Origin: an uncultured Clostridia bacterium | GTDB lineage: Bacteria > Bacillota > Clostridia > Christensenellales > Borkfalkiaceae | Direction: 5' to 3' | DNA: 31,193 nt | Assembly: GCA_964598045.1 (NCBI GenBank) | Contig: CAZRAS010000001.1 | Span: 1 to 31,193 of the forward strand | Shown: one piece after another, positions 12,883 through 16,493 of the stretch | Layout: each line of letters opens with the position of its first letter | Position numbering within the stretch: the stretch's first letter is position 1 | Notes under the pieces: model-generated | Databases searched by the model: none | Told to the model about the DNA's origin: nothing | What the model saw: the letters and a program-made list of their open reading frames with translations, nothing else | Made by a program: the position numbers and the translations under genes

Positions 12883-13377
12883 ATGAGCGAAAGTTTAGGA
12901 CAAAGATTACAAAAGTTTAGAAAAAGAGCAAATCTCACGCAGGAAGACGTGGCAACAAAGCTGAACATCACGCCGCAAGCCGTTTCCAAATGGGAAAACG
13001 ACGTTTCCGCCCCCGACATTTCTTTATTATCGGAGCTTGCCGATACGTACGGCGTCACCGTAGACGAATTGTTGGGCAGACAACCGCAGACGATGTATTT
13101 ACCCGAAGGGCAAACCAAACCGCTTGAAAGTTTGATGTTAAAAATCAAAGTATTGAGCAGCGACGGCGACAAAGTAAACGTCAATCTCCCCTTGGCACTT
13201 GTAAAAATGTTTACCCAAAACGGCATAGACATACCACAACCACAGATCAACAACAGCGACGTACTGAAAAATCTCGATTTTAATCAGATTTTATTGCTGT
13301 GCGAACAAGGTCTACTCGGCAAAATCGTAGACGTGGAATCCGCCGACGGCGATCTCGTGGAAGTTTGGGTGGAATAA
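12883..13377 (+). CDS. XRE (Cro/C1) HTH regulator fused to a C-terminal SHOCT-like/YvlB-type domain
   Basis: LTQEDVATKLNITPQAVSKWENDVSAPDI HTH; C-terminal LKIKV..DGDKVNVNLPLAL..IVDVESADGDLVEVWVE. Extended -10 TGtTATAAT at 12821-12829. Confidence 0.85.
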   Translation: MSESLGQRLQKFRKRANLTQEDVATKLNITPQAVSKWENDVSAPDISLLSELADTYGVTVDELLGRQPQTMYLPEGQTKPLESLMLKIKVLSSDGDKVNVNLPLALVKMFTQNGIDIPQPQINNSDVLKNLDFNQILLLCEQGLLGKIVDVESADGDLVEVWVE

Positions 13378-13733
13378 TGAACATTCAAATTCAAGAAAAG
13401 AGAAAGACCATTCTCAATCTATGGCTGCCGAACTTATTGCTGACAAGCAAATTTGCGACAAAAATGTTTCTCAAAGCAACCCGTCCATCCAAAGAAAATA
13501 TTCAAATGGCGCAAGCGAACCCGGAAATCATAGATCCGTCGTTGAAGGAGCAGATCAAACAGCAGAGCAAAGCAGACGTAAAGGCACTTAAAGACACGGC
13601 GAACTTCTCTCAAGAAGAAATTCAAAATGCACGAGCGTGCATGGCGACGTTGAAAAAATACATCAAAAAGCACGGACACTTCACCCTTGTGGAAGTCCAC
13701 TCCGCCGATACCTACGTACGTATCCGCGTATAA
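13377..13733 (+). CDS. Small protein resembling the SHOCT-like domain of the upstream regulator
   Basis: Starts at the TAATG overlap (MNIQIQEKR..LWLPNLLL..FTLVEVHSADTYVRIRV), 118 aa; followed by a terminator. Confidence 0.78.
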   Translation: MNIQIQEKRKTILNLWLPNLLLTSKFATKMFLKATRPSKENIQMAQANPEIIDPSLKEQIKQQSKADVKALKDTANFSQEEIQNARACMATLKKYIKKHGHFTLVEVHSADTYVRIRV

Positions 13734-13760
13734 CAATCACGCCTATTCCCTTACGAACGA

Positions 13761-13794
13761 AAACGTCCGACGTTGATCCGTCGGGCGTTTTTTT
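13761..13794 (+). terminator. Intrinsic terminator
   Basis: AAACGTCCGACG-ttgatc-CGTCGGGCGTTT plus T-tract. Confidence 0.85.
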
Positions 13795-13840
13795 GCGGAA
13801 TTTTATAAAGCAAAAAATGATTTTTTTCCTTTTCAAATCG

Positions 13841-13869
13841 TTGACTTTTCATCTTTTCCGTGCTATAAT
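13841..13869 (+). promoter_or_regulatory. sigma-A promoter of mgtE
   Basis: TTGACT-N17-TATAAT with extended TG; about 265 nt of leader before mgtE. Confidence 0.85.
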
Positions 13870-13875
13870 AAAGAA

Positions 13876-14090
13876 AAATTAAGCAAACAAGGAGGTGAAC
13901 GTAATGGCGAGTGGCGACAATCCCGGGGCAAGTGGACGATTATGCAGAGATCTATTCAAGATGAGAACGTCGGCGACTCTTTGCCGTTTACGTTCCATAT
14001 AGCAGACTGACGCGAGCAAAACAGGCTCGCCAATATCTCTATACTCTGAAAACATCCGTATTGCCTCACGCACTACGGTATTTTTATGCC
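13876..14090 (+). promoter_or_regulatory. Structured 5' leader/attenuator of mgtE (candidate Mg2+-responsive element, not M-box)
   Basis: Three-way junction (13946-51/14035-40 closing hairpins 13961-98 and 14012-30), terminator-like hairpin 14056-78 plus T-tract, competing helix 13925-36/14055-67. Confidence 0.6.
13904..14002 (+). CDS. Putative leader peptide MASGDNPGASGRLCRDLFKMRTSATLCRLRSI
   Basis: Perfect 10-nt SD AAGGAGGTGA (13889-13898), 5 nt before ATG, just downstream of the promoter. Confidence 0.5.
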   Translation: MASGDNPGASGRLCRDLFKMRTSATLCRLRSI

Positions 14091-14140
14091 CATTTGTTCC
14101 TTCTACACAATGAACAATCAACGAAAAGGAGGACAAAAAC

Positions 14141-15565
14141 ATGGAAAACAAAGAACTTATCACAACGGAAAATGTGGCGGTAAAACCCGATTACACCGCC
14201 GAAATCGTGGCACTCATTCAAAGAAACGACACTCCGAAAACGATTCTGACCAAGCTGGAAGATTATCACGGTAACGATATTGCCGACGCACTTGACAGGC
14301 TGACGCTCGGAGAAAGAAAAAAATTCTATCGGGTGTGCAACGTGGAATTGCTTGCAGACGTGTTCGAATACATCGAGGCTGCGCAAGCCGGCACTTACCT
14401 CCGTGAAATGGAGATCAAAAAAGCGGTGTCGATTATCGCAAAGCTGGACACGGATACGGCGCTCGAAACGCTGAGAGCCATTGAAAAGGAAAAGCGTGCG
14501 TTGATGATCGATATGCTCCCCGACGAGATCCAAAAAGAGATCCGCATCATCGCTTCCTTCGACGAGGAGGAGATCGGGAGCAGAATGACCACGAATTGCA
14601 TCGTCATTCACGAAGGCATGACGGTGAAACAGGCAATGAACGAACTGATTCGACAGGCGGAAGACAACGACAACATCTCCACTCTTTTCGTCGTAGACGA
14701 GGAAAATGAATTTTGCGGCGCCATCGATCTCAAAGACTTGATCACCGCAAGAAGCAGCACGCCATTAGAAGAGCTGATCGCAAGCTCCTTCCCCTACGTA
14801 TACGCAAACGAACAAGTTTCCGATTGCATCGAAAAATTGAAAGACTATTCCGAAAGCATTATTCCCGTCCTCGACGACTCCAACAAATTGCTCGGAGTTA
14901 TCACCTCGCAAAACATTATCGAGGCAGTAGACGATGAAATGGGCGACGATTACGCAAAGCTGGCAGGTTTGACAGCAGAAGAAGACATCAACGAAACTTT
15001 GCCGCAAAGCATTAAAAAGAGAATCCCGTGGCTTATCGTCTTGCTCGGACTCGGCATTCTCGTTTCCGCCGTCGTGGGGGCATTTGAAAAGGTAGTGGAA
15101 CAGCTCACCATTATCATGGCATTCCAATCCTTGATTTTGGACATGGCAGGCAACGTCGGTACACAATCCCTTGCCGTCACGATTCGCGTGCTGACCAACG
15201 AACATCTTTCCTTGCAACAGAAATTCAAACTCGTTTTCAAAGAAGTCCGCATCGGTTTGTGCAACGGCGTATTTTTGGGCGGGATTTCTTTCGGCTTAAT
15301 AGGACTGTATATACTCCTGTTCAAAAGCAAAACGGCACTCTTTGCCTTTTCCGTCTCGGGCTGTATCAGCCTCTCCCTCCTTCTTGCCATGCTGATCGCA
15401 AGCGCAGTGGGCACGCTGATCCCCCTTTTCTTCAAAAAGATCAAGGTAGATCCTGCCGTAGCCTCCGGACCGCTGATCACCACGATCATCGATCTCGTCG
15501 CCGTCGTCACCTATTACGGCATGAGCTGGCTCTTTTTGATCAATCTCTTACACTTAGCCGCATAA
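14141..15565 (+). CDS. mgtE: Magnesium transporter MgtE
   Basis: N-domain, tandem CBS domains, KKRIPWL, DMAGNVGTQS, DPAVASGPLITTIID; SD AAAGGAGG. Confidence 0.95.
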   Translation: MENKELITTENVAVKPDYTAEIVALIQRNDTPKTILTKLEDYHGNDIADALDRLTLGERKKFYRVCNVELLADVFEYIEAAQAGTYLREMEIKKAVSIIAKLDTDTALETLRAIEKEKRALMIDMLPDEIQKEIRIIASFDEEEIGSRMTTNCIVIHEGMTVKQAMNELIRQAEDNDNISTLFVVDEENEFCGAIDLKDLITARSSTPLEELIASSFPYVYANEQVSDCIEKLKDYSESIIPVLDDSNKLLGVITSQNIIEAVDDEMGDDYAKLAGLTAEEDINETLPQSIKKRIPWLIVLLGLGILVSAVVGAFEKVVEQLTIIMAFQSLILDMAGNVGTQSLAVTIRVLTNEHLSLQQKFKLVFKEVRIGLCNGVFLGGISFGLIGLYILLFKSKTALFAFSVSGCISLSLLLAMLIASAVGTLIPLFFKKIKVDPAVASGPLITTIIDLVAVVTYYGMSWLFLINLLHLAA

Positions 15566-15666: not shown

Positions 15667-16353
15667 TTATGATTCGGATTGTCTGTTTTTCATACGTTTC
15701 CAACTGAGATACCCGTAAAGATCATTCAACAAAAACACGACGAAACAAACGACCACGGAAAGATAACGAATCTCGGAAACGCTCGCCAACGTCCATAACA
15801 CGATCAAAACGACGTCATTCGCAGCATACGCCAACGCATACGTCGGAGAACGGCGAAACGTGAGATAGACGGCAAGAAAACTCGTAGTCACCGAGACGGT
15901 ACTCGGAAAAATATTCGCCGTATCGAACGCTTTCAAAATGAAATAGAACACCGCCGTCACCACGGCTGTCAGAAGATACATCGCCACGCGTTCCCCCTTG
16001 CCGATCGTGTTCACTTTCACCTCCGCCTTATTCCCTTGATAGGGATTTTTCAGCCAAGATACCAACGCAAAAATCGCCATCGGCATCGTCATTCCGAGAT
16101 AGGTAAACATCTCCCCGTAATAGGCAAACGTGTAAGAAATAATGCCGTACAACAAACTAAACGCAATCATGAGCGCCTGTCCGATCGGATTGCCTTTTGC
16201 ATTAAAAATGAGCGACGTCACCCCGACGAGCGAGGCAATCAGCGTTATGTAACTTTCACGATCGAAAAGACAAAAAGACAAAACAATCGCAAGAACAGAT
16301 ATCGACCATAAAATCAGCTCCTGTTTCGAGAAATAGGCAAATAATTTTTTCAT
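15667..16353 (-). CDS. pnuC: PnuC-family (nicotinamide riboside/vitamin) transporter
   Basis: Seven to eight TM helices, LIFNAKGNPIGQ, YYGEMFTY, YAANDVVLIVLW, LYGYLSW. Start ATG 16353 after GGAAG. Confidence 0.85.
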   Translation of the reverse strand: MKKLFAYFSKQELILWSISVLAIVLSFCLFDRESYITLIASLVGVTSLIFNAKGNPIGQALMIAFSLLYGIISYTFAYYGEMFTYLGMTMPMAIFALVSWLKNPYQGNKAEVKVNTIGKGERVAMYLLTAVVTAVFYFILKAFDTANIFPSTVSVTTSFLAVYLTFRRSPTYALAYAANDVVLIVLWTLASVSEIRYLSVVVCFVVFLLNDLYGYLSWKRMKNRQSES

Positions 16354-16363
16354 AGAAACTTCC

Positions 16364-16460
16364 AAAAAAATAAGCATCCGCATACACATCTTCCAAGACC
16401 TAACGATGTGTAAACGAATGCAAACGCATTATGCTACCCGGTGGCAACCATTCATTTTAT
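16364..16460 (-). promoter_or_regulatory. Attenuator/riboswitch-like leader of pnuC
   Basis: About 16-bp terminator (16421-16374) plus U-tract (16373-16364) right before the SD; competing 9-bp helix 16457-49/16420-12 enclosing hairpin GUUGCC-ACCG-GGUAGC. Confidence 0.65.
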
Positions 16461-16464
16461 AAGC

Positions 16465-16493
16465 AGTATAGCATAACAACTCGAAAATGTCAA
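16465..16493 (-). promoter_or_regulatory. sigma-A promoter of pnuC
   Basis: TTGACA-N17-TATACT with extended TG. Confidence 0.85.

Follow-up and report, generated by a model that had tools for sequence, protein, structure and literature searches.

The mgtE leader of rumen and gut Clostridia is probably a ribosome-mediated attenuator with a conserved leader peptide

How is the Mg2+ channel gene mgtE controlled in a bacterium whose mgtE leader holds no M-box? The question was raised by a stretch of 31,193 nucleotides (nt) from an uncultured Clostridia bacterium (contig CAZRAS010000001.1), which was analyzed at its full length and is referred to here as the window. The regulation of Mg2+ uptake in Gram-positive bacteria is usually explained by the M-box riboswitch, and mgtE in Firmicutes is typically under riboswitch control. 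In an original prediction, made from the letters of the window, the mgtE leader had been described as a non-M-box RNA with a terminator, an antiterminator and a small upstream open reading frame (uORF), acting either as a direct RNA sensor or as an attenuator coupled to the ribosome. Comparison with related leaders indicates that the Mg2+ channel gene is probably controlled by a leader-peptide attenuator that works through the ribosome. It is a real and conserved variant of a known regulatory principle, and apparently an undescribed one. Judged from the sequences compared, mgtE control in this clade of rumen and gut Clostridia looks ribosome-based, and the same channel gene would be controlled by a device different from the M-box.

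No match was obtained when the whole window was searched with Rfam 15 at the gathering score, and at E<=10 nothing relevant was found in the region 13730-14200. The M-box (ykoK, RF00380; gathering score 44 bits) gave no match even at E<=10, and the Mg_sensor or mgtA leader (RF01056) was not among the E<=10 matches; the leader is a member of neither family. Six orthologous leaders were searched with Rfam as well and gave no match. An M-box of 106.4 bits, located upstream of a mgtE homolog in a genome of the same order, served as positive control (L017:1000-1156, genome G026; L denotes the compared loci and G the genomes, L101 being Ruminococcus albus 8). Because the identical search detects this M-box, the negative result is meaningful. 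The window leader is not an M-box, in agreement with the original prediction, in which a search of Rfam and a check of conservation and covariation in related leaders had been proposed; the first of these checks matched no known class. No description of this mgtE leader was found in the literature, and the 'mgtE motif' of the Breaker laboratory is confined to Thioalkalivibrio and unrelated to the window leader. A result of 'no riboswitch found' should not be equated with constitutive expression.

The comparison was based on 80 of 502 confirmed mgtE orthologs (63-89% identity) from species-representative genomes. Almost all of these came from metagenome-assembled genomes (MAGs) of rumen and gut Ruminococcus, Oscillospiraceae and Lachnospiraceae; R. 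albus 8, R. albus KH2T6 and Ruminococcus sp. YE71 were also included. Two conserved blocks were found in many of the orthologs by blastn of the leader. A Shine-Dalgarno (SD) sequence, a start codon and the N-terminal motif were present in about 75 of the 77 ortholog loci having sufficient upstream DNA. The family arrangement is an SD (GGAGGTGA or GAGGTGA), five to seven bases, the start codon and then the conserved codons GCA AAC GGC GAC AGT TGC GGG TCA AAC GGR CGA. The start codon was GTG in 57, ATG in five and TTG in two of 64 leaders. When metagenome contigs were scanned for the pattern, 50 matches were obtained, about 43 of them with both SD and ORF, and wherever downstream sequence exists the matches with an SD are followed by an MgtE ortholog (60-72% identity). 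The six or seven matches lacking an SD equal the number expected by chance. With the metagenome copies included, leader-bearing MgtE orthologs span 60-89% identity. Because the leader features recur in orthologous leaders, they are regarded as beyond chance.

The device is narrowly distributed. Pattern scans of genomes gave one true match in 401 evenly drawn Clostridia genomes and two in 101 genomes of one family, all of them of the mgtE type. A promoter scoring at least 9 of 12 was found in 72 of 74 related leaders, and the distance from its end to the uORF start had a median of 39.5 nt (interquartile range 34-42). Since the promoter ends a fixed short distance upstream, the uORF is the first element of the transcript. 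Five leader ORFs were looked up in a protein collection; four were absent, the one of the window included, and the fifth was misnamed. The leader ORFs are thus essentially unannotated, and the family motif can be used to annotate them.

The uORF is probably translated, as judged from its pattern of substitution. The 74 distinct leaders all keep its frame free of stop codons over 26 codons or more (median 34.5), as do 34% and 8% of them in the other two frames. The ratio of nonsynonymous to synonymous differences (pN/pS) was determined by pairwise Nei-Gojobori counting on 81 distinct sequences, with two shifted frames as controls. A value of 0.44 was obtained for codons 2-12 (controls 1.01 and 1.06). 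For codons 2-7 the ratio was as low as 0.29 (controls 0.92 and 0.84) at a high synonymous divergence (pS of 0.63), and for codons 8-12 it was 0.66 (controls 1.07 and 1.28). Variation in the uORF was observed at third positions (GGC/GGT, GAC/GAT, AAC/AAT, TGC/TGT and CAT/CAC), and divergent members carry synonymous swaps at otherwise fixed codons (GGG to GGC, GGT or GGA; AGT to AGC; CGA to CGG or CGT). Insertions and deletions were in frame, the uORF of L061 being one codon shorter and that of the L071 group two codons longer. The family consensus was M-[AT]-N-[GS]-D-S-[C/H/Y]-G-[S/A]-x-G-R, with Asp5 in 64, Gly8 in 61, Ser6 in 60 and Asn3 in 53 of 64 leaders. Asp5 was unchanged across GAC/GAT swaps and [GS]4 was held across GGY/AGY changes. 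By these measures the first eight residues are under peptide-level selection. A conserved, translatable, SD-led ORF at the 5' end of the transcript is what the attenuator class has, and it was found here.

The original prediction had laid stress on a D-N-P-G segment of the peptide. This stress did not survive the comparison, as the family motif is D-S-[C/H/Y]-G. The Pro is limited to the window and its nearest relative, L032, and D-N-P-G is therefore a lineage-specific variant with a Pro that is not a family trait. At codon 6 (13919-13921 in the window), which is outside the antiterminator strand, AGT is nearly fixed in the family and the window has AAT (Asn).

Beyond codon 12 the peptide was found to be unconserved, with a total length of 26-60 amino acids (aa). 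This bears on a different explanation, namely that the uORF is an independent small-protein gene with its own terminator, the 32-aa peptide of which acts in trans, for example on MgtE. Such a gene would account for the strong promoter, for the strong SD and for the terminator that closely follows the stop codon, and small proteins (MgtR, MgtS and MgtU) are known to regulate Mg2+ transporters in enterobacteria. However, conservation is limited to the first 8-12 residues, while the variable remainder tolerates a frameshift (L031 compared with the window) and is not hydrophobic. Furthermore, no separate mgtE promoter is evident in 14088-14140. A small protein acting in trans is for these reasons hardly credible.

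Most leaders contain a hairpin and a U tract 100-150 nt after the start codon, at a median of 14 nt after the uORF stop. The terminator stem was analyzed in a MAFFT alignment of 38 leaders. It was 83.5% paired, 10 of its 11 pairs showed double changes and 62 compensatory cells were counted, values that none of 500 shuffles attained. An intrinsic terminator between the leader ORF and mgtE, a second mark of the attenuator class, was hereby found; a few relatives are without it and rely on masking of the ribosome binding site alone. The pairing of codons 7-12 with the 5' arm of the terminator had a mean duplex energy of -15.2 kcal/mol for cognate combinations, compared with -12.5 kcal/mol for non-cognate ones (permutation p 5e-5), -9.6 kcal/mol for shuffled terminator arms and -6.4 to -7.8 kcal/mol for other 19-nt pieces of the leader. 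Changes at codon 9 were matched in the arm (UCA/UGACC, GCA-A/UUGCCUC, GGGCA/UGCCC and GGU-ACA-AAC/GUUUGUAUC). In fixed columns the antiterminator was 78.3% paired, versus 31-46% when slid. The complementarity of the antiterminator is thus regarded as conserved, with modest compensatory support, and a third feature of the class, an antiterminator lying partly within the leader ORF and mutually exclusive with the terminator, is likewise present. The proposed check in related leaders gave a conserved uORF N-terminus and a covarying terminator. Of the two original options, the family tests favour the attenuator coupled to a uORF, the uORF being predicted to be translated and the attenuator, with its terminator and antiterminator, being conserved.

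The structure of the leader was also considered without regard to translation. A riboswitch consisting of RNA only, with an incidental reading frame and a leader that itself binds Mg2+ or another ligand, would explain why the leader is structured: RNAfold of 13876-14145 gave -71.2 kcal/mol (z = -2.26), and the segment equivalent to the P1 domain was stabler than shuffles in relatives (mean z -3.0; 72% below -2). The terminator and antiterminator would then be a classical expression platform, in line with the general riboswitch control of Firmicute mgtE and with the M-box in L017. However, the P1 domain varies in sequence, length and branch number and has no conserved junction or loop nucleotides. 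Upstream of the terminator, sequence conservation is limited to the SD, the start codon and 8-12 codons with codon periodicity, in a frame that is always open. An RNA-only riboswitch is therefore quite improbable. The direct RNA sensor offered in the original prediction found no support on the same grounds, as no conserved aptamer-like core was present and the conserved block showed codon periodicity, in-frame insertions and deletions and frame-specific purifying selection.

A closing helix AGAGAU:AUCUCU had been proposed for the P1 domain. The AUCUCU partner is lost in L032, and CAGAG:CUCUG together with UAUAG:CUAUA is used instead, both in the minimum free energy (MFE) fold and in the consensus fold of the three closest relatives. 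A register-shift switch that involves AGAGAU:AUCUCU likewise has no support as a conserved feature, since this pairing is not preserved in L032. The original interpretation was accordingly upheld as to a non-M-box, uORF-coupled attenuator and set aside as to the RNA sensor, the emphasis on D-N-P-G and the AGAGAU helix with its register shift. The elements on which it had been built, that is the promoter, SD, 32-codon uORF, hairpins, terminator stem and 13925-36:14055-67 complementarity, are all present (Table 1).

Table 1. Features of the mgtE leader and of mgtE, in coordinates of the window.
Feature	Coordinates	Strand	Description
Sigma-A type promoter	13841..13869	+	TTGACT 13841-46, 17-nt spacer with extended TG, TATAAT 13864-69; 11/12 consensus match
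Predicted transcript start	~13876	+	Predicted from the promoter; leader ~265 nt
Leader ORF Shine-Dalgarno AAGGAGGTGA	13889..13898	+	5 nt 5' of ATG
Leader ORF	13904..14002	+	ATG 13904, 32 codons (MASGDNPG...; MASGDNPGASGRLCRDLFKMRTSATLCRLRSI), TAG 14000-02
Conserved peptide core, codons 1-8	13904..13927	+	M-A-S-G-D-N-P-G in the window
Region 1, antiterminator 5' strand	13925..13936	+	GGGGCAAGTGGA / GGGGCAAGUGGA, codons 8-11; complementary to 14055-67
P1 variable structured domain	13945..14048	+	Multi-branch in the window; contains 3' half and stop codon of leader ORF
P1 closing helix	13945-49:14044-48	+	CAGAG:CUCUG, plus UAUAG:CUAUA
AGAGAT / ATCTCT	13946-51 / 14035-40	+	Complementary segments, read from sequence
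P1 hairpin GAACGT/ACGTTC	13965-95	+	Read from sequence, in MFE
P1 helix	13998-14006:14036-43	+	Predicted fold
P1 hairpin GCGAGC/GCTCGC	14012-30	+	Read from sequence, in MFE
Intrinsic terminator	14055..14087	+	Stem 14056-64/14070-78 (CCGTA-T-TGC / GCA-C-TACGG), loop CUCAC
Antiterminator 3' strand	14055-67	+	Overlaps terminator 5' arm
Terminator U-rich tail	14079-87	+	TATTTTTAT / UAUUUUUAU, directly after stem
Block 2, anti-SD / anti-start	14086..14104	+	AUGCCCAUUUGUUCCUUCU; 14093-14104 pairs with 14127-37; kept in relatives (blastn)
mgtE ribosome binding site and start	14128..14143	+	Shine-Dalgarno GGAGG 14128-32; start codon 14141-43
mgtE	14141..15565	+	474 aa; MgtE_N, two CBS domains, MgtE membrane domain (Pfam PF03448, PF00571, PF01769)

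A mechanism can be proposed from this arrangement. Region 1, codons 7-12 in the family, is transcribed first, and when free it would capture the 5' arm of the terminator before the 3' arm emerges, which would result in read-through into mgtE. A ribosome on about codons 6-18 would cover region 1, the terminator hairpin would form and transcription would stop. The effect of the ribosome was simulated in 44 leaders by folding transcripts that end with the terminator stem while a footprint reaching from -12 to +15 nt of the P site was masked. With the P site at codon 6, 12 or 18, the terminator formed in 93-100% of the leaders, and the window was in the terminator state (100%). With the ribosome at the start codon the terminator formed in 50% of the leaders, and with the ribosome at the last sense codon in 68%; in both cases the window was in the antiterminator state, with 0% terminator at the last sense codon. 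These simulations agree with the model, in which occupancy of the conserved codons would mean mgtE off and vacancy mgtE on. Just when the ribosome covers region 1, the exit tunnel would be filled by the conserved peptide, a geometry expected of a regulatory pause or drop-off peptide, and the peptide-level selection seen on codons 2-7 would be compatible with sequence-specific stalling.

In the window the MFE fold contains the antiterminator helix 13925-36:14055-67, both hairpins and the SD-masking helix 14093-14104:14127-37. Two conformers of the window were near iso-energetic (-57.3 versus -56.2 kcal/mol, gap 1.1). The uORF start and codons 1-4 (13903-13916) pair in the MFE fold with 14069-14082, that is with the terminator 3' arm and U tract, over 12 base pairs, and the 5' region of the uORF thus holds both arms of the terminator.

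The architecture of the leader resembles that of the trp and his leaders. A classical amino-acid attenuator, in which the ribosome would pause at hungry codons (Gly, Ser, Asn, Asp, Cys, Arg) according to the supply of charged tRNA, was considered also because the minor codons AGT, GGG and TCA are conserved. However, tandem runs of one amino acid are absent and the regulated gene is always a Mg2+ channel. In addition, pausing would favour termination in the window and most relatives, which is the opposite of starvation attenuators. An amino-acid signal is thus very improbable.

For the ribosome-mediated attenuator the proposed signal is Mg2+, because mgtE is the only gene to which the device is linked and the device occupies the usual place of the M-box. 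Cytoplasmic Mg2+ would be sensed by way of how the ribosome behaves on the conserved nascent peptide. At high Mg2+ the ribosome would dwell longer or occupy the codons continuously, and mgtE would be off; we infer this direction because homeostasis requires it. At low Mg2+ initiation at the start codon, which is mostly GUG, would be poor, or the ribosome would clear the codons faster or drop off, and mgtE would be on. A more specific proposal, which we consider possible though doubtful, sees in the octapeptide M-A-N-G-D-S-(C/H/Y)-G a new sensory peptide that causes arrest or destabilisation. The dwell on codons 8-16 would then be set by free Mg2+, or by another metal via Asp/Ser/Cys-His side chains, and the ribosome would be a Mg2+ sensor that replaces the M-box, with one 12-nt strand driving both the transcriptional and the translational platform. 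If the peptide makes translation Mg2+-sensitive, this would be an independent second case, after MgtL, of the ribosome as Mg2+ sensor. It would also be a compact and mutable module, consisting of 8 residues and a 12-nt competing strand, in which the reading of Mg2+ by the ribosome, a long-standing question, could be tested directly.

Several observations weigh against a ribosome-mediated attenuator that acts on the antiterminator and responds to Mg2+. The family peptide is without the features known to give MgtL its Mg2+ sensitivity. The MFE of the free RNA is the terminator, not the antiterminator, in 86% of the leaders, the window being in the antiterminator state (terminator 0%). Since the terminator is already the optimum of the free RNA in so many leaders, the choice between the two structures must be kinetic, and thermodynamic modelling alone was rejected as an arbiter of the default state. 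Covariation of the antiterminator in fixed columns was weak, with a score of 0.19 versus 0.17 that was reached by 57 of 500 shuffles. This was to be expected because one strand is coding and nearly invariant, for which reason the support for the antiterminator rests on the conserved complementarity and the energy permutation test. On the side of the attenuator, a hint came from transcripts of R. albus 8, available as assembled metatranscriptome contigs. One of them (L101, 1189-1401) starts 10 nt downstream of the -10 box and stops about 10 nt beyond the U tract of the terminator. A second contig lies separately over mgtE, and in another run a contig passes the terminator and continues into mgtE. 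These contigs fit a mix of terminated and read-through transcripts; they are of low depth and come from a relative, not from the window organism, for which no RNA run was found.

A last observation against the attenuator concerns the peptide itself. In L040 (508-560) and L041 (1298-1350) a one-base insertion after the Gly8 codon (GGGGTCAAACGGAC) preserves the pairing of region 1 with the terminator arm and alters the peptide, which becomes G-V-K-R-T. Because the insertion spares the RNA and not the peptide, the peptide signal is taken to cover only about 8 residues, codons 9-12 being mainly constrained by the RNA. The insertion is also what would be expected of a peptide-independent translation gauge, in which the uORF reports the efficiency of initiation or elongation (for example ribosome-available Mg2+), the amino acids are irrelevant and conservation results from RNA and codon choice. 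The strong nucleotide bias in the core (AGT 58/62, GGG 53/61, CGA 50/53) points in this direction, as AGT and GGG are minor codons in the genes of the window, AGT making up 9% of the Ser codons. Furthermore, the GUG and UUG starts (59 of 64) may render initiation sensitive to conditions. On the other hand, codons 2-7 lie outside the antiterminator strand and yet show a pN/pS of 0.29 at a pS of 0.63. The constancy of Asp5 through GAC/GAT and of [GS]4 through GGY/AGY, and the in-frame insertions and deletions, are also difficult to reconcile with irrelevant amino acids. A mere gauge of translation is therefore regarded as unlikely.

The attenuator that is preferred here resembles several known systems. 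Like the MgtL/mgtA leader of Salmonella and E. coli, it has a short leader ORF before a Mg2+ importer gene, MgtL being known to be translated and the window uORF predicted to be. Ribosome behaviour selects alternative RNA structures that decide transcription into the transporter gene, as is proposed for the window, and in both peptides conservation lies close to the N-terminus. MgtL is rich in Pro and acidic residues (MEPDPTPLPRRR...), whereas the window family has M-A-N-G-D-S-C-G, no conserved Pro and no sequence similarity to MgtL. With one acidic residue and no conserved Pro, the family peptide is not of the MgtL (EPDP) type. Termination in mgtA is Rho-dependent, in contrast to the intrinsic, covarying terminator of the window family, and mgtA encodes a P-type ATPase in Enterobacteria, compared with an MgtE channel in Clostridia. 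The predicted logic, in which occupancy turns mgtE off, is probably opposite to that of MgtL. The window leader would thus appear to be analogous to MgtL in logic and not homologous to it.

The M-box (RF00380) shares with the window leader the position in the 5' leader of Firmicute mgtE, the intrinsic terminator at the end and presumably the physiological purpose, but its core is a three-helix metal-binding aptamer and that of the window family is a coding sequence. The trpL, hisL and pheL leaders and the uORF of Corynebacterium ilvB (PMC11109978) also have a 5' leader ORF with a strong SD that overlaps the antiterminator strand opposed to an intrinsic terminator. Unlike these, the window family has no codon run for a single amino acid, conservation extends to the peptide itself, a ribosome sitting on the sensing codons would by prediction promote termination and not prevent it, and an additional helix masks the ribosome binding site (RBS). 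A short conserved peptide upstream of the regulated gene is shared with ErmBL/ErmCL, CatA86L, TnaC and SpeFL. As in these arrest peptides, the conserved segment of the window would sit wholly in the exit tunnel while the ribosome covers the regulatory strand; there is no sequence resemblance, and in the window family stalling is only a candidate property. According to a report on Mycobacterium tuberculosis (PMC12810186), an M-box there controls a small upstream ORF and termination is Rho-dependent. Both are Mg2+-related leaders with a conserved small uORF in the control of downstream genes, and the sensor is a bona fide M-box in M. tuberculosis, whereas the window has no M-box and the uORF is the conserved element.

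The second conserved block of the leader, block 2, has the family sequence AUGCCCAUUUGUYCCUYC. Its pairing with the mgtE RBS (SD and start codon) had an energy of -12.45 for cognate and -11.0 for non-cognate combinations (p 2e-4), a sign of covariation in the RBS-masking helix. Block 2 also contains the ATG of a possible second uORF (14086, MPICS...). This candidate was rejected, as some relatives have TTG in place of the ATG, one nucleotide is deleted in L038, an SD is absent, and frame and length are inconsistent. Block 2 is better explained as an anti-SD and anti-start segment than as a second uORF. Four leaders without a terminator (L050, L082, L092 and L100) have a region 1 that is complementary to the anti-SD segment, with an energy of -19.2 in L050 compared with -9.9 for shuffled sequences. 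In these relatives region 1 would compete for the anti-SD, giving the same logic at the translational level. Pairing of region 1 with block 2 as an anti-anti-SD was stronger than with shuffled sequences in the family (-14.3 versus -10.35) but showed no cognate specificity (p 0.26). Two other pairings were tried and rejected. A long-range helix between the uORF RBS and block 2, obtained with RNAalifold from the four closest relatives, had the same energy family-wide as when shuffled (-11.0 and -11.0). When a pairing of codons 4-6 with the anti-SD was inspected by eye, the Gly/Ser change at codon 4 was not matched by covariation.

The window belongs to a 1.09-Mb MAG that is 68% complete. When 25 genomes of its genus were searched, mgtE with the leader was found only in this MAG (G000) and in G022 (locus L002). 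Most of the other searched genomes of the genus contain an MgtE paralog of about 560 aa, which is about 25% identical to the window MgtE; an Rfam search upstream of these paralogs (L007-L012, L016, L020 and L025) found no M-box and no other family. The nearest orthologs of the window mgtE belong to other families (Ruminococcus, Oscillospiraceae and Lachnospiraceae). Since the cassette of mgtE and leader is patchily distributed within the genus and its nearest orthologs are in other families, the sequences suggest that gene and leader have spread laterally together.

The upstream neighbours of the leader are a HTH_3 protein (12883-13377) and an ORF without Pfam match (13374-13733). These genes end in a GC-rich hairpin at 13767-13790, which lies between a T run and an A-rich run and resembles a bidirectional terminator. 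Downstream, pnuC, encoding a nicotinamide mononucleotide transporter, is located on the minus strand (15667-16493) and converges on mgtE. In a Lachnospiraceae MAG, a glmS ribozyme (95 bits) was observed just 3' of the mgtE ortholog (L055:3037-3196).

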